Source: Desulfobacteraceae bacterium (GTDB lineage Bacteria > Desulfobacterota > Desulfobacteria > Desulfobacterales > JAABSP01). From it: a DNA stretch of 64,000 nucleotides. Shown piece after piece: positions 20,949 to 35,528 of the stretch (positions are counted from its first letter, which is position 1; every line of letters begins with the position of its first letter). The DNA is taken from the NCBI GenBank assembly GCA_011390345.1, contig JAABSP010000022.1, positions 6,206 through 70,205 of the forward strand, read 5' to 3'. Made by a program: the position numbers and the translations under genes. The notes beneath the pieces are model-generated. The model ran no database searches and was not told where the DNA came from. It worked only from the letters and a program-made list of their open reading frames with translations.

Positions 20949-21019
20949 GCCTTCGGTTACCCGAATCCATTCATCGCCATATCCGGGCCGATTATGATTG
21001 GAAGGAAAGGGGAATCGTT

Positions 21020-21208: not shown

Positions 21209-21231
21209 TCCCATTCGGTCTCTGAATGGGA
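21209..21231. promoter_or_regulatory. Perfect 8-bp inverted repeat, candidate enhancer (UAS) for the sigma-54 promoter
   Basis: tcccattc-ggtctct-gaatggga lies about 150-170 bp upstream of the -24/-12 element at 21381. Confidence 0.3.
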
Positions 21232-21380
21232 GGCAAATCTTCCGGGACAATCTCTTTCCGTCATTCCTTATTTTCAGCCTTTTCTCTTCTTTATCTCAAA
21301 AAATTTCCCACATAAGCCTTTAAATATATAACAAATTATAAATCCAGACCGCCACGGATATCCTTCTTGTCAGAAATACA

Positions 21381-21395
21381 GGCACATCCTTTGCA
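21381..21395 (+). promoter_or_regulatory. Sigma-54 (-24/-12) promoter candidate at the head of the DUF362/mft/lar/aor block
   Basis: aGGCACatcctTTGCAt has exact GG-N10-GC spacing and one mismatch to TGGCAC-N5-TTGCA. It lies about 120 nt upstream of the first DUF362 start. Confidence 0.55.
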
Positions 21396-21516
21396 TATAG
21401 CCTCCACTTTGAGAACCAAAGGGAAAGGAGGGATGCAGAAACCGCAGAACATGGAAGTTTTGCACAGGCAAAGGGCGATTGATTTTTGAAATCGGAGAAT
21501 GAAAGGAGGAGACCCG

Positions 21517-23016
21517 GTGGCTGATTACAAATGCGAACCCACCAAGTGGGTCGAGATGTCCCAGCCCGTCGACGGCGGCAGGGACACTTATCAGACAAAG
21601 AGCTGGCATCCGCCCAAGGAGAACTGGGGGCCTTTCACCACATCGGGCACAGCCCCGGTATGGTTTGCGGAGGCCAATGCCACCAACTGGACCGAGTCGA
21701 TGATCTGCAAGGCCAAGGATCTGTTCTACGAGGCCAAGCTGAATGAGTGCTTCGACAAAGGAGACGAGGTCGCTATCAAGATCCACTACGGCGAATGGAA
21801 CCGGACCGCGATCCTGCGGCCCGAATACATCGCGGCCATCGTGGAGGAGGTCAAAGCCTGCGGCGGCAACCCCTATGTGGTCAACGACACGACGTTGTCC
21901 TACCACATCTTCAATTCCATGGCCTATTCCCACTATCAGAAGGCCGGCGCGACCCGCCACGGGTACACCGACGCGACCTTCGGATGTCCGGTGGTCGTGG
22001 CCGACGGTTTTGCAGGTGAGGATGATTATCGGGTGGACATTCCCGACGGATTGATCCTCAAGGAGACCTACATCGGCCGGGCCGTCGCGGAGGCAGACGC
22101 GATGATCGTGCTGGCCCACGCCCGGGGGCACGCCATCACCATGTACGGCGGCGCGCTGAAGCAGCTCGGGATCGGGTGCCAGTCCAAGCGGGGCAAGTAC
22201 ATCACTCACCTGGCCCACTGGGGCGATCCCCATGATGCGATCGGCTGGCCCAAGTTTACGGACCAGTGTCCGGGCAAGGCGTGCAAGTTCCATCAGATGT
22301 GCGATGACTCCTGTCCCAGAGGCGCACATCATGTGGTGGAGCACGGCAAGGTCTGGGACCCCTCCAAGTGCCGTCTCTGCTACTCCTGTCAGGTGACCTG
22401 CATCTTTTCGGGCATGACCGGCATCACCTTTGAGGAGAACTACTTCCCCAATGCGATGATCGCACATGCGGATGCGGCCCTGGGCGCGCTCAAGTGCTTC
22501 GAGAAGGGGAAGGTCGGCTACATCAACCATGCCATTGACGTGGTTCCGGAGTGCGACTGCTTCCCGTGGGCCGGTCTTGCCATCTGCGCGGATGTGGGGC
22601 TTTTTGCCGGCAAGGATCTGGTGGCCGTGGAGATGGCGACTCTGGATGCCATCGACAAGATGGCCATCAGCCCGGGATCGGTGGCCGAGGAGAAGGGGTG
22701 CAAGCCCGGCGACGACAAGTTCCAGATGGTCAACGGCTTCAGCCCGAGGATCACCATGGCCGCGGCCGAAAAGATCGGACTGGGCGGCCAGAAGTATGAG
22801 CTGATCAACTACGAGCCGGTGCTCTCCCCGGAGAGCGCGGCCCGCTGGCAGGTCCGGGGCGCAGGCGGCGAAAAGGGCAAGGCGACTACGCTGCGACTGA
22901 GAGAGACGTTCCATCGGAATGATCTCGCCACCGAAGTGCAGCCCTTCAGGCGGACCGATTACAACAAGGAGTGGGTCTTCAGCGAGTGGAAGAAGTACGA
23001 TCCCTTCAGCAAATAG
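21517..23016 (+). CDS. DUF362-family protein with Cys-rich (ferredoxin-like) insert
   Basis: …GDEVAIKIHYGEWNRTAILRPEYIAAIVEEVKACGGNPYVVNDT… and …INHAIDVVPECDCFPWAG… fit DUF362. The Cys-rich insert is CPGKACKFHQMCDDSCPRG…CRLCYSCQVTC. I prefer the GTG at 21517, with AGGAGG 6 nt upstream, over the ATG at 21499. Confidence 0.75.
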   Translation: MADYKCEPTKWVEMSQPVDGGRDTYQTKSWHPPKENWGPFTTSGTAPVWFAEANATNWTESMICKAKDLFYEAKLNECFDKGDEVAIKIHYGEWNRTAILRPEYIAAIVEEVKACGGNPYVVNDTTLSYHIFNSMAYSHYQKAGATRHGYTDATFGCPVVVADGFAGEDDYRVDIPDGLILKETYIGRAVAEADAMIVLAHARGHAITMYGGALKQLGIGCQSKRGKYITHLAHWGDPHDAIGWPKFTDQCPGKACKFHQMCDDSCPRGAHHVVEHGKVWDPSKCRLCYSCQVTCIFSGMTGITFEENYFPNAMIAHADAALGALKCFEKGKVGYINHAIDVVPECDCFPWAGLAICADVGLFAGKDLVAVEMATLDAIDKMAISPGSVAEEKGCKPGDDKFQMVNGFSPRITMAAAEKIGLGGQKYELINYEPVLSPESAARWQVRGAGGEKGKATTLRLRETFHRNDLATEVQPFRRTDYNKEWVFSEWKKYDPFSK

Positions 23017-23136
23017 ACCCGGCAGGTGAGTTGTAGCTGATTGCAGGAGAAAAGCCGGGGGAGGCAATCTGCCTTCTCCGGCCCCTTTCCCGAGCATAAA
23101 AACCGAATTAAGATCGCAATCGGGAGACAGAGATCC

Positions 23137-24072
23137 ATGAGCGAAGTAGTATGGGTGGATACCCGGCAGATGAGCTTTGAAAATTCGATCCGTCACAAGC
23201 TTCTCCGCCTGTCCGAGGCCGCAGGGATCATCGAGGATCTTTTGGAATCGATGCAGGTGGCGGTGAAGATCAACACCGCGGAAGAGGGGTATGAGTATGG
23301 CCTTCGGCCCAACTTCATCCAGGTCTTTACTGAGGTCATGGAGGAGAAGACCCTCAAATGCCCCCTGATCTGTGACGGACAGCGTCTGGTGGACTACTGG
23401 CGAAAGGCCCGGGGGAATACCTTTCTGAAGACGGCCGGGGCCAGGGGATACAGCAAAGAGACTCTGGGAGGGCTTTTTCTCCTAAACGGCGGATTTTCGG
23501 GCGATGAGGGGGATCTTTATCCCTGCGGCTCGACCGAATCGGAGCTGGGCGGGGTCGAAGTGGGGGCCGCGGTCTGCCGGGCCGATGCGCTACGGGTGCT
23601 CTCCCATGTGACTTTGCACCCGCTCTTTGGAATAAATGGTGCGCTGTTGAACAGCGGGTTTGAATGTCTGTCGGGCAGGGCAAGGACCCGGGTGCTGCAG
23701 GGGTTGAGCCCTTATATCTTCAACGGCAGCCGGCCCGGAAGGGATCAGGTGAATGGATTTCAGCGGCGGGCTCTGGAGAGCTGTTTCGGGGTTCGGACCG
23801 CTGTTGAAGAGCGAATCTTTTACGTCAACTATCTCTGGGATGTTACGCCCCAGCCCGAATATTATCCTTTCAGCGAGGGGCCGGTGGCGGAGAATATCGG
23901 CTTTCTCGCCTCCAATGACCCGGTGGCCCTGGACGGCGCCACTTGGGCACTGATAACAAAACAGAATCCCGCAATCGAGGAGATGGTCGGTGTCGATGTT
24001 CCCGGTCTGATCCGAACAGCGGCCGATATGGGGCTGGGCAGTGCGGAATGGTCGATCCGGCAGATCTCCTGA
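23137..24072 (+). CDS. Second DUF362-family protein (no Fe-S insert)
   Basis: …MQVAVKINTAEEGYEYGLRPNFIQVFTEVMEE… and …ASNDPVALDGATWALI… are DUF362-like. I used the ATG at 23137 within ORF 23041..24072. Confidence 0.7.
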   Translation: MSEVVWVDTRQMSFENSIRHKLLRLSEAAGIIEDLLESMQVAVKINTAEEGYEYGLRPNFIQVFTEVMEEKTLKCPLICDGQRLVDYWRKARGNTFLKTAGARGYSKETLGGLFLLNGGFSGDEGDLYPCGSTESELGGVEVGAAVCRADALRVLSHVTLHPLFGINGALLNSGFECLSGRARTRVLQGLSPYIFNGSRPGRDQVNGFQRRALESCFGVRTAVEERIFYVNYLWDVTPQPEYYPFSEGPVAENIGFLASNDPVALDGATWALITKQNPAIEEMVGVDVPGLIRTAADMGLGSAEWSIRQIS

Positions 24073-24121
24073 CCCCGTCAATTTTCAGATGCAAACAGAT
24101 TTTTTCTAAGGAGGAGCCGAA

Positions 24122-25129
24122 ATGACGATGAACCGAAGCGAGTTCGTCGATCGCCAGAAACAGCAATTGATGAATGAGGGGGCCATCGCGGATGCCCTTC
24201 AGTATGTCCGGTACAAGATCGCGATCCTCTCCGGAAAGGGCGGCGTGGGAAAGACCGCGGCCACGGTGAACCTCGCGGCCGCACTGCAGAAGGCCGGGAA
24301 CCGGGTGGGGATCTTTGACGCGGATCTCCACGGCCCCAGCATTCCCAAGATGCTCGGGATCAAAAAGGAGCAGGCAAGGCTCAACGGCGCGTTCTGGCTC
24401 GATCCTGTGGTCACGGCAACTGGAATCAAGGCGCTCTCGGTTGCCCTCTTCTGGCCCGGGGAGATGACCCCGGTGATGTGGCGGGGCCAGACCAAGAGCC
24501 GCACCATTCGCCAACTCCTTTCTGCGGCCAAATGGGGGGGGCTCGACTATCTGCTGGTCGATCTTCCTCCGGGAACCGGGGATGAGCCTATCGCGATTTT
24601 AAAGTCGATCCCGGATCTGGACGGCGTCATCATCGTCACCACGCCCCAGGAGGTCTCCACCATGGTCTGCTCCAAGGCCATCAACGCCTCCGTCACACTG
24701 GGGGCCAAGGTGCTGGGCCTCATTGAGAACATGAGCCACTACACATGCAGTTGCGGTGATACGGTCTATCTCTTCGGTAGAGACAAGGGGAAACAGCTTG
24801 CGCGGATGATGGAGATCCCGTTTCTGGGGTCAGTCCCCATCGACCCGCAATTCTCCGAGGCGGCCGATACCGGGGTTCCGGTGGTCGATCTCCATCCCCA
24901 AAGCCTGACGGCCACTTCCTTTACCAGAATCGCGGATACCCTGAGCAGCCAACTCCCCCCAAAGGCGGTCAAGGAGGCCCCGCCCGAAGAGCACAAGCCC
25001 TGCCCCGGAGCCAGCCATCATCACGGCCACGGAGAGGGAAGTCACTGCAGCCACGGCCATATCCATGCCAGGCCCAAGGAGGAGGACGGGTGCGGGTGCG
25101 GACATGGCCATGAGCATCATCGGCATTGA
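24122..25129 (+). CDS. Mrp/NBP35(ApbC)-family P-loop ATPase with a C-terminal His/Cys-rich tail
   Basis: The deviant Walker A is ILSGKGGVGKT, followed by DLPPGTGDE and MSHYTCSCGD. The tail reads CPGASHHHGHGEGSHCSHGHIHARPKEEDGCGCGHGHEHHRH. Confidence 0.85.
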   Translation: MTMNRSEFVDRQKQQLMNEGAIADALQYVRYKIAILSGKGGVGKTAATVNLAAALQKAGNRVGIFDADLHGPSIPKMLGIKKEQARLNGAFWLDPVVTATGIKALSVALFWPGEMTPVMWRGQTKSRTIRQLLSAAKWGGLDYLLVDLPPGTGDEPIAILKSIPDLDGVIIVTTPQEVSTMVCSKAINASVTLGAKVLGLIENMSHYTCSCGDTVYLFGRDKGKQLARMMEIPFLGSVPIDPQFSEAADTGVPVVDLHPQSLTATSFTRIADTLSSQLPPKAVKEAPPEEHKPCPGASHHHGHGEGSHCSHGHIHARPKEEDGCGCGHGHEHHRH

Positions 25130-25212
25130 GGTTGGTGGCTGGTGAATAGTGGCTGGTGGCTGGTGGTTGGTGACTGGTGGCTGGTGGTTGGTGACTGGTG
25201 GCTGGTGGTGAA
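25130..25212. repeat. G/T-rich tandem repeat (about 21-bp unit ggttggtgactggtggctggt)
   Basis: Two perfect 21-bp copies plus degenerate flanking copies start immediately after the Mrp stop codon. Confidence 0.85.
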
Positions 25213-25287
25213 TTGATAAAATCCGAAACTGCTGTTTTTTATAGTTTTGCTTTGATTATCCATTTTGAAGAATAAGGAGGAACCAAA

Positions 25288-25614
25288 TTGAGCGATCAGA
25301 AGATGGGAACCCATTATGTGAGAGAGGTGTGTGAGATTTTCAGAAATGTGGCGGCAAAGAGCCCCTTTCCCGATGTCCAGGAGCGGCTGAACAAGATCGC
25401 AGACGAGCTGGAGCCGATCGCGACCAAGCTCTACTTCAAGACCCAGAAGGGAACCGAGGACATGAAGGAGCTGGCTGAGCAGGCACAGGATCTCGACGCG
25501 AAGCTCTCCGCATGCAAGGAGTCCGGAGAGGCCGATGCGGTCTGCAATCCCTTCTTCGTGGAGCTGGAGAAGATCATCAAGCACGTCAAGACCATGAAGG
25601 TACGGATGACCTGA
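25288..25614 (+). CDS. Hypothetical helical protein (108 aa)
   Basis: It is an ORF with AAGGAGG 7 nt upstream of a TTG start. I recognised no family. Confidence 0.5.
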   Translation: MSDQKMGTHYVREVCEIFRNVAAKSPFPDVQERLNKIADELEPIATKLYFKTQKGTEDMKELAEQAQDLDAKLSACKESGEADAVCNPFFVELEKIIKHVKTMKVRMT

Positions 25615-25626
25615 AGGAGATCTTCA

Positions 25627-26055
25627 ATGGAACAGCATGCGACGGCGCAGGAGCCGGCGGAACAGTGTCCGGAAGCTGTAGAGAATGGCGCAGGGATCAC
25701 CGAAGAGATGAGCCGGGAGATGGTCGAGGATATTACCCGGCTCGGCATTCGCACCGCGGTGCTGCTCAGAGGGGTGATGCTTCAGAAGGTGGATCGGGAG
25801 ACCCTCCGGTGGGGGCTGGACGAGCTGGGGGTGGATGATCTGATGGCGCGGTATATCGGCCCGCTGCTGAATGTACCGGATCATGTGCAACTGCTGAACC
25901 TGCTCTACCTCGTCTACGGCCTCCACGGACAGATCGACTATCAGATCCGGGAGTACGGGCTCGACTCTTTGAAGGATGACCTTCAGGAGATCAATTTCAG
26001 CCTGCAGCAGATCGGCGAGCAGTTCCGGCTCGAAGAGTTGAAGGTGGCGATTTAA
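25627..26055 (+). CDS. Hypothetical protein (142 aa)
   Basis: It is an intact ORF 12 nt after the previous stop. I recognised no family. Confidence 0.5.
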   Translation: MEQHATAQEPAEQCPEAVENGAGITEEMSREMVEDITRLGIRTAVLLRGVMLQKVDRETLRWGLDELGVDDLMARYIGPLLNVPDHVQLLNLLYLVYGLHGQIDYQIREYGLDSLKDDLQEINFSLQQIGEQFRLEELKVAI

Positions 26056-26094
26056 GAGATATTTGGGTAAAGGATTAGGAAAAGGAGCAAAAGG

Positions 26095-26907
26095 ATGAAA
26101 CTGAAAGAGAAGGTGGCCATCGTCACCGGCGGGGCAAGGGGCAACGGATTTGCCGCGGCAAAGTGCATGGCCCAAGAGGGTGCGCATATCGTCATCGCGG
26201 ATATCTGCGAGGATATGGAGACGATTCCGTATAAGATGACCACCGCAGAGGGGATGGAAAAGGCGGTGGGAGAGATCCAGTCCCTGGGCGTGAAGGCGCT
26301 TGGAATCAAGTGCGACGTGCGCAAGGCGGCCGATGTGGAGCAGATGGTGGAAAAGGTGATCGCCGAGTTCGGGAAGATCGACATCCTGGTCAACAACGCA
26401 GGCAACACCTCTATGGTCGCGATCGCGGATATGGACGAGAAGACCTGGGATGAGGTGCTCGACACTCATCTCAAAGGGATGTACCTCTGCTGCCGGTATG
26501 CGCTGCCCCATATGATCAACGCCCATTCCGGATGCATCATCAGCATCTCCTCGGTGGGAGGGCAGCGGGGATTCGGCATGGGAGGCCACTACTGTGCAGC
26601 CAAGCACGGGATCATCGGCCTGAACAAATCGATCGCGATGGAGGTGGCCGATCACAATATTCGCGCCAATGTGGTCTGTCCGGGAACGGTCTGGACAGAC
26701 ATGATGAAGGGGATCGCGTCCTATTTTGGAATGGACGACGAGGCCGAGGCCAAAGAGCAGTTCTTCGCGGGACACATGATCAAAGATCCCGAGGTCGCGC
26801 CGGAGGACATCGGCCGGGCCGTCTGCTGGCTGGCCACCGACGACACGCGGTGCATCACCGGAAACATGATCACCGTGGACGGCGGCTGGACTGCGCAGGC
26901 CCCATAA
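26095..26907 (+). CDS. SDR-family oxidoreductase of the mycofactocin-coupled type
   Basis: TGGARGNG is the Rossmann motif. The characteristic insertion IVIADICEDMETIPYKMTTAEGMEKAV resembles the DIC…VPYPMATPEDL insert of mycofactocin-associated SDRs. The catalytic motif is YCAAK. The gene lies immediately upstream of mftA. Confidence 0.8.
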   Translation: MKLKEKVAIVTGGARGNGFAAAKCMAQEGAHIVIADICEDMETIPYKMTTAEGMEKAVGEIQSLGVKALGIKCDVRKAADVEQMVEKVIAEFGKIDILVNNAGNTSMVAIADMDEKTWDEVLDTHLKGMYLCCRYALPHMINAHSGCIISISSVGGQRGFGMGGHYCAAKHGIIGLNKSIAMEVADHNIRANVVCPGTVWTDMMKGIASYFGMDDEAEAKEQFFAGHMIKDPEVAPEDIGRAVCWLATDDTRCITGNMITVDGGWTAQAP

Positions 26908-26949
26908 ACCCTCAATCTTTAATTTATCGGAAAGGAGGAAGAGAGACGT

Positions 26950-27090
26950 ATGGAAAAAGAGGCGAGAGAGAAGAACCTGCAGGAGAAGGAGACGGAGCAG
27001 CGTCCCCAGGATACCGTAGAGATTCCGGCCATCCTCGAGGAGGTCAATATCGAGGAGCTTGCTGTGGACGGTATCTGCGGCATCTACTAA
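26950..27090 (+). CDS. mftA: Mycofactocin-type precursor peptide (46 aa), not in the ORF track
   Basis: My own translation gives MEKEAREKNLQEKETEQRPQDTVEIPAILEEVNIEELAVDGICGIY*. AGGAGG lies 11 nt upstream. The C-terminus parallels the canonical MftA …IDGMCGVY. mftB and mftC follow directly. Confidence 0.8.
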   Translation: MEKEAREKNLQEKETEQRPQDTVEIPAILEEVNIEELAVDGICGIY

Positions 27091-27132
27091 GGAAGAAAGA
27101 CCAGACCGAAAACTTCTTCTGTGCCAAAAGGT

Positions 27133-27160
27133 TTCCGGCCTCCTTTCGGGGAGGTCGGAA
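27133..27160 (+). terminator. Stable hairpin just after the precursor gene (attenuator or RNA-stabiliser candidate)
   Basis: ttccggcctcc-tttcgg-ggaggtcggaa forms an 11-bp stem with one G-U pair. No strong T-run follows, so read-through into mftB is likely. Confidence 0.45.
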
Positions 27161-27230
27161 GCCTTCGCTTTCAAAATGGCATGGGGCCATGATGGAGGCA
27201 TGACCATATCGGAGATTCAAGGAGAGAGGA

Positions 27231-27512
27231 ATGCGATCCAATACGGTTTACCACCTGAAGACCGGGGTGCAGGTCCGGCCCGAGGTCTTCGGACTCCTCT
27301 TCTACAACTATCGGGGGCCCAGGCTCTATTTCGTGCCGTCCAAGGATCTGATCCCGTCGGAATTCTTCGGGGGAAAGGAGACCGTGGGGGATCTCGTGAC
27401 GGGCATCTGCAAACGGATGCCGTGGCCCGGGGATGTTGTGGGAAAAAAGATCCAGGAGATTCTGGACATGCTGGAAGGAAGGGAGCTGATCTATGGGGAA
27501 TCAGTATGTTGA
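27231..27512 (+). CDS. mftB: Mycofactocin biosynthesis chaperone MftB (PqqD-like RRE)
   Basis: …VQVRPEVFGLLFYNYRGPRLYFV… parallels the mycobacterial MftB segment VRPEPFGALLYHFGTRKLSFL. The size is 93 aa. Confidence 0.8.
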   Translation: MRSNTVYHLKTGVQVRPEVFGLLFYNYRGPRLYFVPSKDLIPSEFFGGKETVGDLVTGICKRMPWPGDVVGKKIQEILDMLEGRELIYGESVC

Positions 27513-28575
27513 TATGGGGCTTTCGGCCCCGGTAAACGTCACCTGGGAGGTCACCTTCGGCTGCAATCTCTCCTGTGTCCACTGCCTCTCCGATTCGGGA
27601 AGGCGGCGCGAAGGAGAGCTGACCACAGAGCAGTGCCGGGCGGTGATCGACGATCTTTCCCGAAACCATGTCTTTCAGCTCAACATCGGCGGGGGCGAGC
27701 CCTTCTCCCGCCCCGATTTTCTCGATCTGATGGATTACGCGCACGACCGGGGGATCGTCACCTGCATCAGCACCAACGGAACTTTGATCGACGAGAAGAT
27801 CGCCCGGGGTCTCGATCACCGGCTCGTTTACATCCAGGTGAGTCTGGACGGGGCAACCCCGGAATCCAACGATGCGATCCGGGGGAAGGGGAGTTTTGCC
27901 AGCGTGATGCGGGCATTGGAGCATCTTAAGGGGAGGGGGATCGAGGTGAGCATCAACTGTGTGCTGACCCGGCTCAGCTTTCCGGAGCTGGATAAACTCC
28001 ACGATCTGGCCGCGCATTACGGGGCAAAGCTGCGGGTTTCAAGGTTCCGGCCTTCGGGAAGGGGCAAGGATTCCTGGTCCGATCTCAACCTCTCCAGGGA
28101 TCAGATGGTATCCTTTTCCGAATGGCTCAACAGCCATCTTGGGGTTTCCACGGGAGATTCCTTCTTTTCCGTCTCAAGTGAGGAGCGAAGGTCATTGGGG
28201 CTCAACATGTGCGGCGCGTGCAAGCTCACCTGCTGCGTATCCCCCCAGGGGGAGGTCTACCCTTGCGCATTTTTGCAGGATGCCGATTTTCTTTCGGGAA
28301 GGGTTCCGGAGGACGACTTTGCCCGGATCTGGCGGGAGTCGCGCGTATTCCACTCCTTTCGGGAACTGGAGATCAAATCCTGCGAGAGCTGCCACCGGTT
28401 CGATCTCTGTCACGGAGGGTGTCCCGCGATCGCCTACCATACCCAGCGAAAGCTCGGTGTTCCGGACCCGGGATGTCTGGTAAACTGCGTAACGGTTAAA
28501 TCGATGAACACATTGGGAAATGAGTTGAAGAAAAAAGCAGGCGACGATATTCGTCCTGCGGCCGGATACGCATAG
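27493..28575 (+). CDS. mftC: Mycofactocin radical SAM maturase MftC (rSAM plus SPASM)
   Basis: GLSAPVNVTWEVTFGCNLSCVHCLSDSGRRREGELTTEQC…NIGGGEPFSRPDF is very close to the MftC N-terminal region. The SPASM cysteines are CGACKLTCCVSPQGEVYPC…C..C…CHGGC. An alternative start is the ATG at 27514. Confidence 0.9.
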   Translation: MGNQYVDMGLSAPVNVTWEVTFGCNLSCVHCLSDSGRRREGELTTEQCRAVIDDLSRNHVFQLNIGGGEPFSRPDFLDLMDYAHDRGIVTCISTNGTLIDEKIARGLDHRLVYIQVSLDGATPESNDAIRGKGSFASVMRALEHLKGRGIEVSINCVLTRLSFPELDKLHDLAAHYGAKLRVSRFRPSGRGKDSWSDLNLSRDQMVSFSEWLNSHLGVSTGDSFFSVSSEERRSLGLNMCGACKLTCCVSPQGEVYPCAFLQDADFLSGRVPEDDFARIWRESRVFHSFRELEIKSCESCHRFDLCHGGCPAIAYHTQRKLGVPDPGCLVNCVTVKSMNTLGNELKKKAGDDIRPAAGYA

Positions 28576-28577
28576 AG

Positions 28578-30101
28578 ATGCGTGCAGGAATTCTCAGCGG
28601 AGAGCTGACCCTCTCCCCCGGGGTCTCCCTTTTCCAGGGGCCCGACGCGGGGGTGCTGCTCCAGTCCGATCCGATGCGGGCTATCAAGGTCAACGCTGCG
28701 GCCGCGGGGATTCTTGCCCGCTGTCGAAAGGGATGGCGTATCGACGAAAACGCGGACGATCCGCTGCTGAACGCGGCGCTGCCCATGCTCGACCTTTTCA
28801 TTCAGGCCGGCATTCTTCAATGGAGCCCGCCCTCCGAGGGATTCACCCCCTTTGTCAGCATCGTGGTTCCGGTCTTCAACAGGGCTTCGGAGATCGAGGC
28901 CTGCATCCGCTCCCTGCTCGATCTCGATTATCCGGAGGATCTGCGGGAGATCATCGTGGTGGACGATGCTTCGGTCGATTCGACCCCGGATATGGTTTCG
29001 AAGTATCCGGTGCAATTGTTGAGAATGGCGGAAAACCGGGGCCAGTCGGCCGCGCGGAACCGGGGGGTGGAAGCGGCAAGAGGGGAGATCATCGCGTTCA
29101 CCGACAGCGACTGCATCGCAGATCCGAACTGGCTCAAAGATATTCTGCCCTTTTTTCGGGATGAACGGATCGCACTTGCCGGTGGCCTGGTGGATGCCTA
29201 TTACAAAAAGAGCTTTCTGGACCGGTACGAGGCGGCCCAATCCCCCCTCAACATGGGGGAAAAGCCGCTGATCGGTGCCGGAGACCGCTCCGTCTTCTAT
29301 GTCCCGACCTGCAACATCCTTTTCAGAAAGTCGGCCTATGGGGAGATCGGGGGCCTGAACGAGTCGATCCGGGTTGGGGAGGATGTGGATCTCTCCTGGC
29401 GCCTGCTGGCCCGGGGCCACCGGCTCCTCTATCTGCCCAGGGGCCGGGTACTTCACAAACACCGTTCCCGCTTCAAAGATGCCTTCTGCCGCCGCTTCGA
29501 CTACGGCACTTCCGAGCCGGCCCTCTATCTTGCGCATCAGCGGACCATCAAGCGGTTTCCGAGACAGCAGGGGGGTCTGCCATTCTTTGCTCTCTGCGGC
29601 ATGGGCTGTTTGACACTTCCCTGGCTCTTCTTTCCCGGGGCCGGACTGATTCTGCTGGGAGAGGCGCTTTACAAGCGGCGCCAGGCGTCAAAGATGCTGG
29701 ACGCGCCCCTCGCGTTTTACCCCATCTTCAAAGCAGTCCTCCGAAGCCGGTTTACCCTGACCCATTATCTCGCGCTTCACCTGACCCGCTACTATCTGCT
29801 GCCCATGATCGCGCTGGGGCTGATATTTCCGAAAACGATTCCAATACTTTCAGGGCTTGCATTTTTCCCCGCACTTGTGCTCTATTATCGGAAACGGCCG
29901 GATCTCAACTTTCCCCTCTTTGCCCTTTTTTTTCTGACGGAACAGGCATTTTATCAGGCCGGTGTGATGCGGGGATGTTTCAAGACCAGGTGCTTCAGAC
30001 CCTATCGGATCACCTTTTCCGGCGCGGGTTTTCTGAAGAAGAGCCCGGAAAAATGGCGAAAGATATGGCCATTTCGAAAAAAGATGGGGGAGAGCGTTTG
30101 A
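28578..30101 (+). CDS. mftF: Mycofactocin-system glycosyltransferase MftF (GT2 with C-terminal membrane region)
   Basis: The GT2 core is VSIVVPVFNRASEIEACIRSLL…IIVVDDASVDST…ENRGQSAARNRG…FTDSDC…GEDVDLSWR. It has an N-terminal PqqD-like region and C-terminal TM helices, and it sits right after mftC. Confidence 0.8.
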   Translation: MRAGILSGELTLSPGVSLFQGPDAGVLLQSDPMRAIKVNAAAAGILARCRKGWRIDENADDPLLNAALPMLDLFIQAGILQWSPPSEGFTPFVSIVVPVFNRASEIEACIRSLLDLDYPEDLREIIVVDDASVDSTPDMVSKYPVQLLRMAENRGQSAARNRGVEAARGEIIAFTDSDCIADPNWLKDILPFFRDERIALAGGLVDAYYKKSFLDRYEAAQSPLNMGEKPLIGAGDRSVFYVPTCNILFRKSAYGEIGGLNESIRVGEDVDLSWRLLARGHRLLYLPRGRVLHKHRSRFKDAFCRRFDYGTSEPALYLAHQRTIKRFPRQQGGLPFFALCGMGCLTLPWLFFPGAGLILLGEALYKRRQASKMLDAPLAFYPIFKAVLRSRFTLTHYLALHLTRYYLLPMIALGLIFPKTIPILSGLAFFPALVLYYRKRPDLNFPLFALFFLTEQAFYQAGVMRGCFKTRCFRPYRITFSGAGFLKKSPEKWRKIWPFRKKMGESV

Positions 30102-30108
30102 ACGGAAG

Positions 30109-30206
30109 TTTGAATACAACTTTGAATACAACAGGGGAAATGGGCGCGGATCGCGGCATGGATCACAGCACGGATCGGAAAACGGATCGGAAAACGGATC
30201 ACAGCA
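30109..30206. repeat. Phased 12-bp repeats between mftF and larE (2 x tttgaatacaac, then five GGATC cores exactly 12 bp apart)
   Basis: The GGATC cores start at 30148, 30160, 30172, 30184 and 30196. The units are arranged A-B-B-A (ggatcacagca / cggatcggaaaa x2 / cggatcacagca) and end at the larE ATG. Confidence 0.9.
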
Positions 30207-31039
30207 TGAACCGCAAATACGAGGCGCTCAAAGAAATCCTGCGGCAGATGGATCGGGTCCTGCTTGCCTTTTCCGGCGGGGTGGACAGCGCGTTTCTGCT
30301 GCGGGTCGCATCTGAAGAATTGAACGGAAATCTTCTTGCAGTGACAGCCATTTCAGAGACCACCCCCGCACATGAGCAGGAGGAGGCCGTTCGAATTGCA
30401 GCACTCTGCAACGCTCAGCACCTGACGGTGGAGACCCATGAGCTGAATGACCCCGAGTTCACATCGAACCCGGAAGAGAAGTGCTACATCTGCAAAAAGT
30501 ACCGCTTCGGCCTGCTGGCGGATCTGGCGGTGGAGAAGGGGTATCCGGTCGTGATCGACGGCACCAACGCGGATGACAGCAAGGATTTCCGGCCCGGGAT
30601 GCGGGCTCTTCGGGAACTCTCGGTGCGAAGCCCCCTGGCCGAGGCCGGGCTGACCAAATCCGAGATCCGGGCACTTTCAAAACAGCTCGACCTGCCCACA
30701 TGGGACAAGCCGGCCTATGCCTGTCTGGCCACCCGCATCCCCTGCGGCAGTTCCATCACCGGGGAAAGGCTTTCCCGGATCGACAGAGCCGAAGACTTTT
30801 TAAGGGGGTTGGGCGTCAAAGGTCAGGTGCGGGTTCGGGATTACGGGGAGATGTGCCGCATCGAAAGCGCGTCCGACATGATCCAGACGATCGCGGCCCC
30901 CGAAATCCGGGAGCAGATCGTGAACCATTTTTCAAAAATCGGATATAAGTTCGTGACCATCGACCTTGCCGGATACCGGATGGGAAGCGTGGTGCGGCAG
31001 TCTGCGCCGGAACAGAATGGATCGAAACAAGGCCGATAA
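30206..31039 (+). CDS. larE: LarE, ATP-dependent sulfur transferase of nickel-pincer nucleotide (NPN) cofactor synthesis
   Basis: The PP-loop is LLAFSGGVDSAFLL. The Cys set (CYICKK, …YACLATRIPCGS) is of the type reported for Fe-S-binding LarE homologues. I chose the ATG at 30206 so the N-terminus matches LarE spacing before SGGxDS. Confidence 0.85.
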   Translation: MNRKYEALKEILRQMDRVLLAFSGGVDSAFLLRVASEELNGNLLAVTAISETTPAHEQEEAVRIAALCNAQHLTVETHELNDPEFTSNPEEKCYICKKYRFGLLADLAVEKGYPVVIDGTNADDSKDFRPGMRALRELSVRSPLAEAGLTKSEIRALSKQLDLPTWDKPAYACLATRIPCGSSITGERLSRIDRAEDFLRGLGVKGQVRVRDYGEMCRIESASDMIQTIAAPEIREQIVNHFSKIGYKFVTIDLAGYRMGSVVRQSAPEQNGSKQGR

Positions 31040-31115
31040 ACCGGGGCCGATAAACCGGAGCGGATAAATAAAGACCGATAAATAAATGCGGAAAAATGCG
31101 GTTAAATAAGGAGAA

Positions 31116-31919
31116 GTGATGGACAGCCAATATCTGAAGGGCCTGCTGGAGCAGGTGAAGAGCGGCCGTATGAATACGGACGCGGCCATGGAAGCCTTGA
31201 AGGATCTCCCCTTCGAGGATCTCGGATATGCCAAGGTGGACAACCACCGGTGCGTGCGAAACGGTGTGCCCGAGGTGATCTACTGCGAAGGAAAGACCGT
31301 CTCCCAGATCAAAGGGATCATCGCCCGGATCGCGCGGCACAATTCCAATATACTGGCCACCCGCGCGGACCCGGAGGTCTATGAGGGCATCCGGGAGGAG
31401 ATCGAAGACTGCGTTTACCATGAGATGGCCCGGATCGTTGTGGTGAAGCCGAAGGAAGTCGAGAGCATCGGCAATATCGCGGTGGTCTCTGCGGGAACCT
31501 CGGACATCCCGGTGGCCGAAGAGGCCGCAATCACAGCCCAGACTTTGGGCAATCACGTCAACCGGATCTATGATGTGGGCGTCGCGGGTATCCATCGGAT
31601 TCTCCATGCCAGAAAGGATCTTTTTCAGGCCAATGTGGCCGTGGTGGTAGCGGGGATGGAGGGGGCACTGGCCAGCGTCGTGGGCGGACTCGTCTCCTGC
31701 CCGGTCATCGGGGTTCCCACCAGCATCGGATACGGGGCCAGCTTCGGCGGGATCTCGGCCCTGCTGACCATGCTCAACTCCTGTGCATCCGGGGTCTCTG
31801 TGGTCAACATCGACAACGGCTTCGGCGCAGGATATCAGGCGAGCCTCATCAACCGGACCGCCCTGAAATCCCTGCCCAAATCGGACACCGAACCGGTCTC
31901 CCTTGCAAAGGTCTGCTGA
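31116..31919 (+). CDS. larB: LarB, NaAD carboxylase/hydrolase (PurE-like)
   Basis: …LPFEDLGYAKVDNHRCVRNGVPEVIYCEGKT… and …VVSAGTSDIPVAEEA…VAGMEGALASVVGG… are typical LarB segments. Confidence 0.9.
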   Translation: MMDSQYLKGLLEQVKSGRMNTDAAMEALKDLPFEDLGYAKVDNHRCVRNGVPEVIYCEGKTVSQIKGIIARIARHNSNILATRADPEVYEGIREEIEDCVYHEMARIVVVKPKEVESIGNIAVVSAGTSDIPVAEEAAITAQTLGNHVNRIYDVGVAGIHRILHARKDLFQANVAVVVAGMEGALASVVGGLVSCPVIGVPTSIGYGASFGGISALLTMLNSCASGVSVVNIDNGFGAGYQASLINRTALKSLPKSDTEPVSLAKVC

Positions 31920-31923
31920 AAAG

Positions 31924-33123
31924 ATGAAAATCGCCTATTTCGACTGTTTTGCCGGGGCCAGCGGCGACATGATTCTCGGCGCGCTGCTGGATGCGGGTCT
32001 GGAACTGGAAAGCCTGAAAAATGAGGTTGCAAAGATAGGCCTCGACCGGTATGATCTCGGAGTGGAACCCGTGGTGAAACGGGGGATCGGCGGGACCAAA
32101 GCCATCGTCTCCGTGGACGAGGATCATCATGGCCACCACCATCGCCACCTGCGCCATATCGAGGAGATCATCAACGGCAGCACCCTCGATGACCGGGTCA
32201 AGGAAAAAAGCCTTGCCATCTTCCGCCGCCTTGCCGAGGCCGAAGCCAATGTCCATCGCACCTCTGTCGAGAGTGTCCATTTTCATGAAGTGGGCGCGAT
32301 GGATGCTATCCTCGATGTGGTCGGATCTGTGATCGGCTTTCATCTGCTGGGGATCGAAAGGATCTACTGCTCGCCGTTCCATGTGGGATGCGGGACCATT
32401 CATTGTGCCCATGGTCTGCTTCCGGTTCCTGCCCCGGCAACCGCAGCGCTGACGGTCGGGTTTCCGGTCTATTCTAACGGCGTAAAGGGGGAACTGCTCA
32501 CGCCCACGGGCGCGGCCATATTGACGACTCTGGCCCAGGGTTTTGGGCCCATGCCGGCCATGACCGCGGAACAAATCGGCTACGGCGCAGGGACAGCAGA
32601 TCCCGAGGAGATTCCCAACCTGCTGCGGGTGACCATCGGGGAGAACGCTTCAAGTGATGGGCTGGACCAATATGAGGCCGAATCCATCTGCGTTCTGGAG
32701 ACCAATATCGACGACATGAACCCCCAGCTTTATGAAAATCTGATCGAGAAGGTACTGGCCGCGGGCGCGGTCGATGTCTCTCTTGCCCCGGTTCAGATGA
32801 AGAAGAACAGGCCCGGCACAATGGTGACGGTCCTCTGTTCCCACGACCGTCTTGCAACCCTTTCCGATCTGCTGCTGAGGGAGACGACATCCATCGGACT
32901 TCGCTGGCGGACCGATTCGAGGATCATGGCCCGGCGGACCTTCCGGGAAATCGACACCCCCTACGGCCCCATAAAGGTGAAGGTGGCCCAAAAAGGGGAG
33001 GAGATCATCAATATAATGCCCGAATATGAAGACTGCAGACGACTGGCCGCGGAAAAGGGGGTTCCCCTGAAAACCGTGATCGAGGCCGCTGCTGTTGCTG
33101 CAAAGTCGGATTTGGAGCCATAA
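31924..33123 (+). CDS. larC: LarC, nickel insertase for the NPN cofactor
   Basis: MKIAYFDCFAGASGDMILGALLDAG… is typical LarC. It has the His-rich region DEDHHGHHHRHLRH, followed by …HFHEVGAMDAILDVVG… and …MKKNRPG…. Confidence 0.9.
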   Translation: MKIAYFDCFAGASGDMILGALLDAGLELESLKNEVAKIGLDRYDLGVEPVVKRGIGGTKAIVSVDEDHHGHHHRHLRHIEEIINGSTLDDRVKEKSLAIFRRLAEAEANVHRTSVESVHFHEVGAMDAILDVVGSVIGFHLLGIERIYCSPFHVGCGTIHCAHGLLPVPAPATAALTVGFPVYSNGVKGELLTPTGAAILTTLAQGFGPMPAMTAEQIGYGAGTADPEEIPNLLRVTIGENASSDGLDQYEAESICVLETNIDDMNPQLYENLIEKVLAAGAVDVSLAPVQMKKNRPGTMVTVLCSHDRLATLSDLLLRETTSIGLRWRTDSRIMARRTFREIDTPYGPIKVKVAQKGEEIINIMPEYEDCRRLAAEKGVPLKTVIEAAAVAAKSDLEP

Positions 33124-33160
33124 GCAAAGAGGTTTAACCCAGAAAAAAAAGGGAGGAAAA

Positions 33161-34897
33161 ATGGACAAGATTCTTCGCATCAACATGGGACCGGACGGCG
33201 CACCGAGCGTAAAGGAAGAGGGCTTGGGAGACTACGCCGGACTCGGCGGAAGGGGCATGACATCGTCCGTGATCGGCAAAGAGGTGCCGGCGGACAGTCA
33301 CCCCCTCGGCGCAGAGAACAAGCTGGTCATCTCCCCGGGGCTGCTCTCCGGAACGGCCGCGGCTATGTCGGGCCGGATCTCGGTCGGCTGCAAAAGCCCC
33401 CTCACCGGAACCATCAAGGAGTCCAACGCGGGGGGTCAGGCCGCGCAGGTCATGGCCCGCCTAGGATATGCGGCCATCATTCTGGAGGGAAAGCCGAAAG
33501 CCGACACGCTCTACAAACTGATCATCAACAAGGACGGGGTGAAGCTGGAAGAAGACAACAGCCTGAAACTCCTAAACAACTATGAACTGGTGGATAAGCT
33601 CAAGGAGGCCTACGGCGAGAAGATCACCTGCATGACCATCGGATCTGCCGGAGAGCGGAAGCTCGGTTCGGCCACCATCGCGGTCACCGATATGGAGGTT
33701 CGCCCCACCCGCCACTGCGGCCGGGGCGGCACAGGAGCTGTGATGGGCGCCAAGGGCCTCAAGGCGATCATCTTCGACGACTCCGGCATGAAGATGCGCG
33801 CCCCCAAGGACCCCGAGGCATTCAAGGCCGCGAACAAGCGTTTCGTCGAGGGTCTGCGGAAGCACCCGGTCACGGGCGAAGGGCTTCCGGCCTACGGAAC
33901 CAACGTGCTGACCAACGTCCTCTCCGAGGCCGGCGGCTACCCCACCAACAACTTCAGCAAGGGAACCTTCGAAGGCGCATCAAAGATTTCCGGCGAGGCC
34001 CAGGCCGAGCTGGAGACCCAGAGGGGCGGTTCGGCCACCCACGGGTGCCATCGGGGATGCATCATCCGCTGCTCCGGAACCTTCAATGACAAGAACGGCC
34101 GATTCCTGACCAAGCAGCCCGAGTACGAGACCGTATGGGCCCACGGCGGCAACTGCGGGATCGACGATCTCGACGCGATCGCCATGATGGACCGGCTCGA
34201 CGATGATTACGGTCTGGACACAATCGAGATGGGCGCGAGCGTGGCTGTTGCAATGGATGCCGGGATCGCAAAGTTCGGCGACGCGGAGGCCGCGATCAAC
34301 CTCGTCAAGGAGGTGGGCAAAGGCACGGAGCTGGGCCGGATTCTCGGCAGCGGCGCGGCCGTGACGGGCCGGGTCTTCGGCGTGGAGCGGATTCCGGTGG
34401 TCAAGGGGCAGGCCATGCCGGCCTACGACCCCAGAGCTGTGCAGGGCATCGGCGTCACCTACGCCACCTCCACGATGGGCGCAGACCATACGGCCGGCTA
34501 CGCGGTGGCCACCAACATCCTCAAGGTCGGCGGCGATGTGGACCCCCTGAAGCCCGAAGGACAGGTGGAGCTTTCCAGAAACCTGCAGGTCGCGACGGCC
34601 GCGGTCGATGCCACCGGGATGTGCCTCTTCATCGCGTTTGCTGTCCTGGATCAGCCCGACACCTTCCAGGCCCTGATCGATATGCTCAATGCCTTCTACG
34701 GCCTCGAGATGACCGCAGACGACGTGAGCGAGCTGGGGAAGAAGATTCTGAAAGAGGAGCGGGAGTTCAACAAAAGGGCCGGCTTCACCGCAGAGCATGA
34801 CCGGCTGCCGCGCTTCTTCATTACCGAGCCTGTTGCGCCGCACAACGTCACGTTCCAGGTCTCGGACAAGGAACTCGACAACCTCTTCAACTGGTAA
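33161..34897 (+). CDS. aor: Aldehyde:ferredoxin oxidoreductase (tungsten/pterin AOR family)
   Basis: MDKILRINMGPDG…GLGGRGMTSSVI…, …GRGGTGAVMGAKGLKAI…, …CHRGCIIRC… and …CLFIAF… are AOR-family features. GGGAGG lies 6-7 nt upstream of the ATG at 33161. Confidence 0.9.
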   Translation: MDKILRINMGPDGAPSVKEEGLGDYAGLGGRGMTSSVIGKEVPADSHPLGAENKLVISPGLLSGTAAAMSGRISVGCKSPLTGTIKESNAGGQAAQVMARLGYAAIILEGKPKADTLYKLIINKDGVKLEEDNSLKLLNNYELVDKLKEAYGEKITCMTIGSAGERKLGSATIAVTDMEVRPTRHCGRGGTGAVMGAKGLKAIIFDDSGMKMRAPKDPEAFKAANKRFVEGLRKHPVTGEGLPAYGTNVLTNVLSEAGGYPTNNFSKGTFEGASKISGEAQAELETQRGGSATHGCHRGCIIRCSGTFNDKNGRFLTKQPEYETVWAHGGNCGIDDLDAIAMMDRLDDDYGLDTIEMGASVAVAMDAGIAKFGDAEAAINLVKEVGKGTELGRILGSGAAVTGRVFGVERIPVVKGQAMPAYDPRAVQGIGVTYATSTMGADHTAGYAVATNILKVGGDVDPLKPEGQVELSRNLQVATAAVDATGMCLFIAFAVLDQPDTFQALIDMLNAFYGLEMTADDVSELGKKILKEEREFNKRAGFTAEHDRLPRFFITEPVAPHNVTFQVSDKELDNLFNW

Positions 34898-34997
34898 GAA
34901 GCAACCGAAAGGGGAGGGCAGGGGGGCGTCCAATGAATGCCCGCTCCCTCCCAAAATCCAGAAGATGATCCCTCAGAAGAAAAGGCGCTTGCTATAG

Positions 34998-35528
34998 ATG
35001 GAACCATTTGTGCTGACCCTTGAATCGACAGACTCCCCTTTTATCTTTTCCCTGCTCCAGGAAGGGGTGACGGTCCGGGTGCGGGCCGGCTGTTCGGTAA
35101 AGGATATTCTCTGCAACGATCTCCATATCGCGCCCGAATATGTGGAAGAGCGGATCAAGACGGTCTTTTTGAACAACAGGCCCGTGGACGATTATGAAAA
35201 TGCGCTGGTGCGGGAAGGGGACCGGCTGGCCCTTTCCGCGGCAATGCCGGGCCTGGTGGGGGCTACGCTCCGCCGGGGCGGAGTCCTATCGGCCTTTCGA
35301 AGCTCCATCACTCACCTTTCGGAGGAGCAGTGCGAATCCTTTGCCCAAGGGGAGGTGACCATCAAACTCTTCAACCTTCTGGTGCGGGAAATGGCAGCGC
35401 CGCTCCTGACGCATGGAATCATTGTGGAGGGGGAAAGACTTTGCAGGATGGCGAGCGATCTGAATATCGATACGGGAGAGCCTCTGGATGCCCTGGGGCC
35501 GGACCATCGGGTCCTGATTCGATTGTAG
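34998..35528 (+). CDS. Hypothetical protein with a possible N-terminal beta-grasp (ThiS/MoaD-like) domain
   Basis: …VTVRVRAGCSVKDILCNDLHIAPEYVEERIKTVFLNNRPVDDYENALVREGDRLALSAAMPG… resembles a ThiS/MoaD fold pattern, and a tail of about 80 aa follows. This assignment is weak. Confidence 0.35.
   Translation: MEPFVLTLESTDSPFIFSLLQEGVTVRVRAGCSVKDILCNDLHIAPEYVEERIKTVFLNNRPVDDYENALVREGDRLALSAAMPGLVGATLRRGGVLSAFRSSITHLSEEQCESFAQGEVTIKLFNLLVREMAAPLLTHGIIVEGERLCRMASDLNIDTGEPLDALGPDHRVLIRL

Follow-up and report, generated by a model that had tools for sequence, protein, structure and literature searches.

A stretch of 64,000 nucleotides from contig JAABSP010000022.1 of a Desulfobacteraceae bacterium (assembly GCA_011390345.1), hereafter called the window, carries a 17-kb gene block, found intact in dozens of sulfate-reducer genomes, that begins with a sigma-54 promoter element and encodes two DUF362 proteins (designated DUF362a and DUF362b), an Mrp/NBP35-type ATPase, a short-chain dehydrogenase/reductase (SDR), a set of mycofactocin (mft) genes, the larE, larB and larC genes for a cofactor, nickel-pincer nucleotide (NPN), and an aldehyde:ferredoxin oxidoreductase (AOR). 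DUF362a was found to have a LarA-like fold with conserved residues that align with functional residues of LarA and, judging from gene neighbourhoods, it is the hub that different lineages combine with lar, mft, SDR or AOR genes. Based on these features, DUF362a is probably a hitherto unrecognised NPN user, namely an Fe-S oxidoreductase of the LarA clan.

Gene identities were assigned by Pfam and NCBIfam profile matches to the window proteins (scores are given below in bits, where applicable against the curated cut-off). As described in the first-pass annotation of this DNA, the genes are co-directional and closely spaced: 17 genes, the only credible open reading frames (ORFs) in that span, lie between 21499 and 38772, all on the + strand, with intergenic gaps of -20 to 158 bp after their starts were refined against orthologues. 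The features of the block are as follows.

21135 to 21498, + strand: conserved promoter region with the sigma-54 element and an upstream palindrome
21499 to 23016, + strand: DUF362a, predicted catalytic subunit, 505 aa, with a Cys-rich insert (PF04015, 131 bits)
23137 to 24072, + strand: DUF362b, degenerate paralogue, 311 aa (PF04015)
24122 to 25129, + strand: Mrp/NBP35-type P-loop ATPase with a His/Cys-rich C-terminal tail (PF10609, 282 bits)
25133 to 25209, no strand: intergenic heptamer tandem repeat (Tandem Repeats Finder)
25288 to 25614, + strand: small conserved protein, 108 aa (no family above threshold; one sub-threshold Pfam match)
25627 to 26055, + strand: small conserved protein, 142 aa (no family above threshold)
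26095 to 26907, + strand: classical SDR of NCBIfam subfamily 3, "mycofactocin-coupled", here SDR3 (NF040490, 522 vs 385)
26950 to 27090, + strand: mftA, variant precursor peptide (NF040489, 49.5 vs 30)
27231 to 27512, + strand: mftB, peptide chaperone (TIGR03967, 45 vs 33)
27493 to 28575, + strand: mftC, radical SAM/SPASM maturase (TIGR03962, 393 vs 265)
28578 to 30101, + strand: mftF, glycosyltransferase, optional member (TIGR03965, 342 vs 280)
30140 to 31039, + strand: larE (TIGR00268, 303 vs 150)
31119 to 31919, + strand: larB (NF033503, 299 vs 175)
31924 to 33123, + strand: larC, with LarC1 and LarC2 parts (PF01969, 507 bits; TIGR00299 and NF052512 also match)
33161 to 34897, + strand: AOR family protein, optional member (AFOR_N and AFOR_C)
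34998 to 35528, + strand: 176-aa protein after AOR (no Pfam/NCBIfam match)
35609 to 36733, + strand: FIST-domain sensor protein (FIST and FIST_C)
36739 to 38772, + strand: PAS-PAS hybrid histidine kinase with a receiver domain (Pfam PAS/HisKA/receiver)

Pfam and NCBIfam upheld every identity in the earlier gene list apart from a beta-grasp call for the protein at 34998-35528, which was not confirmed: its single-sequence AlphaFold model (predicted local distance difference test score, pLDDT, 44) is too poor for such an assignment. Among the larger gaps are those preceding the 108-aa gene (158 bp) and following mftA (140 bp) and AOR (100 bp). Terminator-like and sigma-70-like sites inside the block occur at the level of shuffled sequence (20 vs 18.6 and 7 vs 6.2, respectively).

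Conserved gene neighbourhoods and the LarA-like fold of DUF362a

A genome scan with MftC identified 21 loci (72-83% identity) in Desulfobacterales, Desulfomonilaceae and related metagenome-assembled genomes (MAGs), and tblastn searches with all window proteins recovered the same gene order in nearly all of them, namely DUF362a-DUF362b-Mrp-108aa-142aa-SDR3-mftA-B-C-(F)-larE-B-C-(AOR)-(176aa)-FIST-histidine kinase, where brackets denote optional members. A metagenome scan anchored on a DUF362a alignment, and hence unbiased for mft and lar, yielded 80 more loci, about 20 of which also have the block order. The possibility raised in the first-pass annotation, that synteny is not kept in any related genome, therefore does not apply, since the order is retained across 21 genome and about 20 metagenome loci. 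Comparison of gene orders thus supports the view that the block behaves as one conserved unit.

Neighbourhoods were counted in the 15 loci of the DUF362a subfamily with at least 49% identity that extend at least 6.5 kb downstream. DUF362b and Mrp genes adjoin DUF362a in all of them (15/15), SDR3 and mftC are present in 11/15, and lar genes in 10/15. Lineages that carry only part of the block were found repeatedly. In Pelotomaculum thermopropionicum SI, a histidine kinase and a sigma-54 activator are followed by DUF362a, DUF362b, Mrp, a NAD-epimerase-like protein, two small proteins and larB-larC-larE, and a second Peptococcaceae contig has the same arrangement up to larB, where the contig ends; mft genes are absent from both of these loci. 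Another locus (L071) has the order larB-larE-DUF362a-DUF362b-Mrp-two small proteins-larC, and its scanned ORFs yielded no LarA, SDR or aldo-keto reductase (AKR) gene, which leaves the DUF362 proteins as the sole candidate NPN acceptors in that locus. Altogether, three lar orders occur beside the DUF362 module in lineages whose DUF362a proteins are 50-57% identical, which argues that the adjacency of lar genes is under selection and not due to inheritance alone. The module occurs with lar and without mft in three loci (L022, L030 and L071), in L027 with just a 76%-identical SDR3 and neither mft nor lar genes in the vicinity, and in L024 flanked by AOR genes. At 14298-21015 of L040, it is accompanied by a 66%-identical SDR3, a 70-aa MftA-like peptide, and MftB-like and MftC-like (55%) proteins, followed by an OYE/Pyr_redox_2 flavoprotein and an ETF-QO-like protein; no lar gene lies within 10 kb. 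A more distant DUF362a subfamily (about 40% identity) has AOR-like genes directly beside DUF362a and forms triads of NAD-epimerase-like, DUF362a and AOR-like genes (L074, L076, L089, L094, L105 and L077); its 17 informative loci include NAD-epimerase-like genes in 11 and AOR-like genes in 6, with no DUF362b, Mrp or lar gene.

With 76 homologues as input, AlphaFold gave a DUF362a model with a pLDDT of 90.4. When this model was compared with the Protein Data Bank (PDB) using Foldseek, each of the top 19 matches was either a LarA-family structure or an uncharacterised structural-genomics entry. Their template modelling scores were 0.28-0.44, the probability was 1.00 for 18 of them, and the next match had an E-value of 0.036. 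DUF362 and DUF2088 (LarA) belong to a common Pfam clan (CL0471), and DUF362 has served as the outgroup of a LarA tree (PMC11770544). H211, K221 and H237 of DUF362a align with His174, Lys184 and His200 of LarA, with identical spacings of 10 and 16 residues, and are conserved in 75/76, 75/76 and 76/76 homologues, respectively. At these positions in LarA, His174 is catalytic, Lys184 tethers NPN and His200 binds nickel. The mapping was made with hhalign, using first one LarA homologue and then an alignment of 45 LarA sequences as the target; both runs produced the same local alignment, and LarA numbering was anchored through a phmmer bridge to PDB entry 2yjg. Given a short reproducible local alignment and a fold match, we regard this residue mapping as a well-supported lead rather than proof. 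The Pfam families Lar_N (PF09861) and LarA_C (PF21113) match neither DUF362a nor DUF362b, for which only PF04015 was found; a phmmer search of DUF362a against PDB sequences returned no LarA and nothing else relevant, and a profile search of the same database returned ferredoxins only, through the insert described below.

Residues 255-305 of DUF362a form a 2x[4Fe-4S] ferredoxin insert (Cys257-Cys301) that is inserted 20 residues past H237 and matches RnfB and other ferredoxins in the PDB profile search at 1e-11; by its sequence, it is a genuine two-cluster ferredoxin domain. An invariant C352-D-C354 motif follows the insert. The first-pass annotation had set the DUF362 proteins apart from the cofactor systems and had counted three such systems as separate. 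Neither statement held: DUF362a is LarA-like in its fold, clan (CL0471) and aligned residues, and lar, mft, SDR and AOR genes attach to it in different lineages.

DUF362a was also observed in a fused form. Six proteins of about 790 aa (P0066, P0077, P0078, P0081, P0083 and P0086) join an XRE-type helix-turn-helix and an MLTR_LBD domain to a complete DUF362a, and in L029 (10001-12379) such a fusion gene adjoins an iron-type alcohol dehydrogenase (Fe-ADH) gene. Either DUF362a serves as a sensor domain as well, or these gene calls were fused.

Promoter, cofactor genes and other members of the block

The sigma-54 -24/-12 element proposed at 21381 was confirmed. The sequence aGGCACatcctTTGCAt at 21381-21395 (GGCAC-N5-TTGCA), located 118 bp upstream of DUF362a, is the single match to the core GGYAY-N5-TTGCW on either strand of the whole window. 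Comparative data also speak for the sigma-54 control that had been claimed, in the form of conserved elements and adjacent activators: -24/-12 elements precede DUF362a in the majority of Desulfobacterota relatives as well as L022, L030 and L032, including Peptococcaceae and one other lineage, and a pair consisting of a histidine kinase and a receiver-sigma-54 activator lies directly upstream of DUF362a in many relatives, Pelotomaculum included. The subfamily with about 40% identity, used as a negative control in the same search, gave one weak sigma-54 match among about 40 loci. An Fe-ADH gene often precedes the kinase-activator pair in Pelotomaculum and several Desulfobacterota (L022 at 3597-8052 and the upstream regions of L039, L040 and L055); its product scores near the model of the "regulatory alcohol dehydrogenase" ErcA (486 vs 550 bits), which hints at alcohol sensing. 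In P. thermopropionicum, an insertion sequence (DDE transposase) lies between the activator gene and DUF362a.

This triad of histidine kinase, sigma-54 activator and Fe-ADH genes is not found upstream of the block in the window or in its 99%-identical relative L113. The sole sigma-54 activator of the window (8046-9536) is 12 kb away and 31-36% identical to the activators adjacent to DUF362a, and the cognate activator is presumably encoded elsewhere. Homology between the window and L113 starts at 21135, upstream of which their contexts differ, indicating that the promoter, whose sigma-54 element is identical in L113, belongs to the conserved block. About 150 bp upstream of the -24/-12 element, at the usual distance of an activator site, a perfect palindrome (TCCCATTC-N7-GAATGGGA) is present at 21209-21231 and is a possible candidate activator site by its sequence and position. 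As a conserved activator site it was rejected, being kept only in L113, with 2 mismatches.

DUF362b starts at M33 (23137), as established from 120 homologues of about 311 aa. An alignment of the two paralogues shows that DUF362b has no equivalent of Lys221 and no CDC motif; it has no ferredoxin insert in this clade, and the insert is present in other lineages. The Mrp protein contains a P-loop and, in the window, a C-S-C (CxC) cluster-bridging motif; among orthologues, those of clade A have CxC, CRCC, CGGC or CGDC at this place, and clade B has the canonical CPDC. Its tail has 13 His and 4 Cys in the last 44 residues and occurs only in clade A orthologues, those of clade B having no His-rich tail. 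The equivalog cut-offs of ApbC and MrpORP were not reached, and an assignment to MrpORP was rejected (284 vs 450 bits). We presume that Mrp delivers Fe-S clusters or metal to the DUF362 proteins.

The two small proteins after Mrp gave only noise against Pfam at E <= 10. Orthologues of the 108-aa protein share an invariant C-terminus (KTxxVRMT). The 142-aa protein belongs to the core of the DUF362 module in several lineages, with tblastn homologues after the Mrp gene in L022, L024, L027, L028, L030 and L031 (Peptococcaceae and other lineages). The 158-bp gap between Mrp and the 108-aa gene includes about 11 copies of TGGTGGC at 25133-25209 (or a 21-bp unit present 3.7 times), followed by an AT-rich stretch and a strong ribosome-binding site; this repeat region is about 38 bp shorter in L113, which means that its copy number varies.

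The mycofactocin genes belong, by their sequences, to a variant type with MftABC and optional MftF. The C-terminus of MftA (...EELAVDGICGIY) is invariant in 20 loci, and the peptide ends in VDGICGIY, with GIY instead of the canonical GVY. MftA falls under the TIGR03969 cut-off (22.6 vs 25) and exceeds that of the "variant-type" model NF040489 (49.5 vs 30); models for the variant-type precursor and for SDR subfamily 3 (NF040490) are thus already available in NCBIfam. It was reported that MftB, MftC and MftF always occur together (PMC3023750), a rule broken here because mftF is missing from several related loci. In the canonical route, MftE frees the cyclised dipeptide and MftD creates the keto-amide redox centre (PMC11778925, PMC7491314). 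The scanned ORFs of the window include no creatininase-family (MftE) or FMN_dh (MftD) protein, and the related loci have no extra conserved gene in the block when screened with the window proteins, which include no MftD or MftE. In SDR3, the TGxxxGxG and YxxxK NAD-binding and catalytic motifs appear intact by eye. A weak hairpin at 27143-27161, in the 140-bp spacer after mftA, could set the expression ratio of precursor to enzymes.

All three lar genes score above their curated cut-offs, including both parts of LarC (LarC1, 226 vs 90; LarC2, 151 vs 50). LarE occurs in two types (PMC11796402), and the protein encoded here is probably the catalytic [4Fe-4S] type and not the sacrificial single-Cys type because it has a CxxC motif (EKCYICKK) plus a third Cys (ACLATR), i.e., the three-Cys pattern. 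Short tandem repeats are present at 31031-31107 in the larE-larB gap. A search for homologues of LarA detected none, either in the window or across the 21 loci L001-L021 of the genome scan.

With regard to the proposed tungsten AOR, membership in the AOR family is clear (AFOR_N, 192 bits; AFOR_C, 281 bits), no NCBIfam equivalog was reached, and the choice between tungsten and molybdenum is not readable from sequence. AOR is present in some related loci and absent from others, and orthologues of the 176-aa protein follow it in 4 loci. The FIST gene is conserved downstream in L010, L011, L015-17, L019 and L021, and the hybrid kinase gene is likewise conserved behind it in relatives. A NosP/NahK-type pair was considered for these two proteins and rejected (NosP, 70 vs 450; NahK/ErcS, 86 vs 400), the likeness being at the domain level only.

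Several other features of the window were also observed. The region at 20380-21135, next to the promoter, is AT-rich (GC content of about 0.49) and contains short gene fragments such as the N-terminus of a predicted AAA-ATPase at 20936-21124. Further upstream (7372-11138), a separate group of regulatory and metabolic genes comprises a LuxR-type response regulator, the PAS-sigma-54 activator, an MttB-like methyltransferase (- strand), a CitMHS transporter and malic enzyme. Downstream of the block, 38794-42432 (- strand) encodes a UvrD-type helicase with an unassigned N-terminal extension of roughly 540 aa, and 53208-56213 (+ strand) a 1001-aa protein with a receiver-like region and a PPDK_N (PEP-utilising) domain.

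A possible NPN-dependent redox operon and alternative explanations

Considering the gene neighbourhoods and the features of DUF362a, we propose that the block forms a single redox operon under sigma-54 control, with DUF362a, DUF362b and Mrp at its centre, in which LarEBC make NPN for the LarA-like DUF362a; we give this reading a probability of roughly 0.55. Since three lar orders argue for a selected adjacency, the lar genes are best explained as serving DUF362a, and this appears to be the best reading even when an unseen racemase is considered. About 15% of surveyed genomes have larBCE and lack larA (PMC11796402), and lar adjacency has already led to a new NPN enzyme family, the AKR NphT, in a study that deliberately excluded LarA-like proteins (PMC13524815).

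We infer NPN binding, electron flow, the substrate and co-transcription as follows. LarE, LarB and LarC would make NPN, which would be installed on DUF362a at K221 and H237. By analogy with LarA, DUF362a might then take a hydride from a C-H beside an OH group, as in a 2-hydroxy acid or a 2-hydroxy amide, and the electrons may leave through the two Fe-S clusters to an external acceptor with no return of the hydride, although the reverse direction would also be possible. DUF362b may be a structural partner subunit, and Mrp could load Fe-S clusters or metal. SDR3 would oxidise an alcohol with the variant mycofactocin (MftA/B/C and optional MftF) as the hydride sink, and AOR would oxidise the aldehyde product to the acid. 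The whole set might thus constitute an oxygen-independent oxidation route for an alcohol, a diol or a hydroxy acid; one possible route leads from diol to hydroxy-aldehyde, hydroxy-acid and keto-acid, with each family in its typical chemistry. A role in alcohol, aldehyde or hydroxy-acid redox metabolism, already suggested in the first-pass annotation, fits the recurrent partners of the module (SDR, NAD-epimerase-like proteins, Fe-ADH and AOR) and a regulatory set of the alcohol type.

Several observations weigh against this proposal. The similarity between DUF362a and LarA is weak at the sequence level: hhalign gives E-values of 0.007-0.015 at a probability of only 3-5%, and hidden Markov model matches have E-values of 0.01-0.3 against 120 sequences, where shuffled controls also match. 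A counterpart of LarA His108 is not evident by eye, no alignment spans that region and it contains an invariant D169 in DUF362a; single-His LarA homologues do exist (PMC12611868). Moreover, no lar gene was found within 10 kb of the module in L024, L027, L028, L040, L041, L061 and L063, or near any of the 17/17 informative loci of the subfamily with about 40% identity, although these retain the H/K/H residues. L024 carries a LarA gene 8 kb from the module, and other regions of these genomes could encode LarA or a different NPN user. NAD-type enzymes can use NPN, as the AKR NphT does, and an SDR or epimerase-like partner could therefore be the client. Finally, most loci are MAG contigs of one order, and thus many are not independent.

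Some of these points lead to an explanation in which DUF362a and DUF362b are Fe-S electron-transfer proteins only and the nickel-pincer cofactor serves either a neighbouring NAD-type enzyme (SDR3, or the NAD-epimerase-like protein in Peptococcaceae), which would bind NPN or NPAD in place of NAD, or a LarA homologue from another part of the genome. The weak DUF362a-LarA similarity and the LarA gene of L024 would be in line with this, as would the SDR-superfamily gene that accompanies DUF362a in most lineages; in a 2026 study, many proteins encoded next to larBCE were annotated as NAD(P)H oxidoreductases, and an AKR was shown to bind NPN (PMC13524815). However, in L071 the lar genes bracket DUF362a-DUF362b-Mrp with no SDR, AKR or LarA among the scanned ORFs, and SDR3 accompanies the module with no lar gene nearby in L027 and L040. 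By eye, SDR3 itself appears to retain canonical motifs of the NAD type, and its profile score is that of a mycofactocin-coupled nicotinoprotein SDR; it is DUF362a, not the SDR, that has the LarA fold and the aligned Lys and His residues. We therefore consider it unlikely that NPN serves one of these other proteins. It is even less probable that the DUF362 module, SDR plus mft, lar, AOR and the two-component system are independent operons with their own promoters and no shared function, juxtaposed and conserved by common descent within Desulfobacterota. Three gaps are able to hold promoters (158 bp, AT-rich with a tandem repeat; 140 bp; 100 bp), the mftF, AOR and 176-aa genes come and go, and most loci come from one order. 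On the other hand, promoter- and terminator-like sites are not in excess inside the block, and lar genes stand beside the module in three orders in lineages with DUF362a proteins only 50-57% identical, where the chance that a single-copy lar cluster falls within 10 kb of any one gene was roughly estimated to be of the order of 1e-3 per genome; at about 40% identity, DUF362a is again found beside AOR-family and SDR-superfamily genes.

It is also conceivable that DUF362a, DUF362b and Mrp form an ATP-dependent machine that assembles the metallocofactor of a partner, such as the tungstopterin or Fe-S site of AOR, or inserts NPN, and that they do not act on a metabolite. The pairing of a catalytic-like protein with a degenerate one, next to an Mrp/NBP35-type ATPase, resembles scaffold-plus-ATPase assembly systems, the Mrp tail shares its richness in His and Cys with nickel chaperones, and AOR, ThiS-like and molybdopterin genes are near the module in several loci. 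Nevertheless, many loci have the module without AOR, the His-rich tail is restricted to one clade, and DUF362a proteins with about 40% identity lie beside AOR and SDR genes with no DUF362b or Mrp. A conserved catalytic-type His211 and an electron-transfer domain also suit an enzyme better than a scaffold, and such an assembly role appears quite doubtful.

Within the proposal that DUF362a uses NPN, a more specific and rather speculative version, which we hold to be improbable as it stands, is that DUF362a is the first NPN enzyme to couple hydride abstraction to one-electron Fe-S transfer and that it acts on the core of mycofactocin as its substrate. Premycofactocin is a 2-keto amide and mycofactocinol the corresponding 2-hydroxy amide (PMC7491314). 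This C(H)OH/C=O couple matches the chemistry of LarA on 2-hydroxy acids. DUF362a and DUF362b might then be the anaerobic counterpart of MftD, which forms the redox centre, of MftG, which re-oxidises mycofactocinol, or of both; as a counterpart of MftG, they could pass electrons from mycofactocinol to ferredoxin-type carriers. MftD, which was not found among the scanned ORFs of the window, is a flavoenzyme of the lactate-dehydrogenase/oxidase family and requires oxygen. Action of DUF362a on the mycofactocin core would explain why lar and mft genes are joined in one operon. Roughly 25% of genomes with mftC have no mftG (PMC11778925), and, if true, this version would answer who recycles mycofactocin in them.

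Relation to known systems and implications

The proposed enzyme may be compared with several known systems. DUF362a resembles the LarA racemases and epimerases (DUF2088 and LarA_C; PDB 5HUQ, 6C1W, 2YJG and 9Q3J) in its clan, fold, aligned residues and lar neighbours, but it belongs to a different Pfam family (PF04015) with sequence similarity below normal significance and no evident second catalytic His. Unlike LarA, DUF362a has the 2x[4Fe-4S] insert and CDC motif; it has a degenerate paralogue and an Mrp ATPase as partners, and it is predicted to catalyse net oxidation or reduction through Fe-S clusters, whereas LarA catalyses racemisation. In the literature consulted, the clients of NPN or NPAD comprise LarA homologues, an ornithine cyclodeaminase and the AKR NphT, the latter two reported in or shortly before 2026. 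The non-LarA clients, as exemplified by NphT, are likewise clients of LarB/C/E recognised by gene adjacency and a His/Lys motif, but their folds are unrelated (a TIM barrel in NphT), they have no Fe-S domain and hydride is shuttled between substrates.

Compared with the mycofactocin system of Mycobacterium (mftA-F, MftG and SDR/Zn-ADH/Fe-ADH; PMC3023750), the block shares an MftA-like precursor, MftB, MftC, MftF and a coupled SDR, and a role linked to alcohol oxidation, predicted in the case of the block, is common to both. However, its precursor ends in GIY rather than GVY, no mftD, mftE or mftR was found in the window, and the mft set lies inside a putative DUF362/lar operon under sigma-54 in strict anaerobes. 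The ORP operons of Desulfovibrio also include an Mrp/NBP35 ATPase (MrpORP, the best NCBIfam match) in a sigma-54-dependent operon of a sulfate reducer; unlike MrpORP, the Mrp protein of the block (284 vs 450) has no MrpORP C-terminal domain, and the block has no ORP protein and different partners. AorABC of Aromatoleum aromaticum, which comprises a tungsten subunit, a polyferredoxin and an FAD subunit, resembles the block in pairing an AOR-family protein with a module of the ferredoxin type and a cofactor subunit that handles hydride. It differs in that the block's ferredoxin module is fused with a LarA-like domain, no FAD subunit is encoded and AOR is not always present.

The first-pass annotation knew of no described functional link between mycofactocin and NPN biosynthesis, and our literature search likewise found no paper that joins mycofactocin with the nickel-pincer cofactor or lar gene names. 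DUF362 (COG2768, PF04015) was encountered in the literature only as the outgroup of the LarA tree, with no other link to NPN. What is new is therefore the proposed NPN/Fe-S enzyme and the coupling of mft and lar, the component families being already known. The block nominates a third, widespread candidate for a non-LarA client of NPN, the DUF362 proteins with an H-x9-K-x15-H motif and a ferredoxin insert, and entries named "DUF362 / uncharacterized Fe-S center protein" that lie beside lar genes could be relabelled as candidate NPN enzymes. If the proposal is true, a large domain of unknown function would gain a role, and NPN chemistry would no longer be confined to hydride shuttling but would include net redox catalysis connected to Fe-S clusters. 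It would also provide the first functional link between mycofactocin and NPN, in which a variant mycofactocin would be made and recycled without oxygen, MftD/E or MftG.

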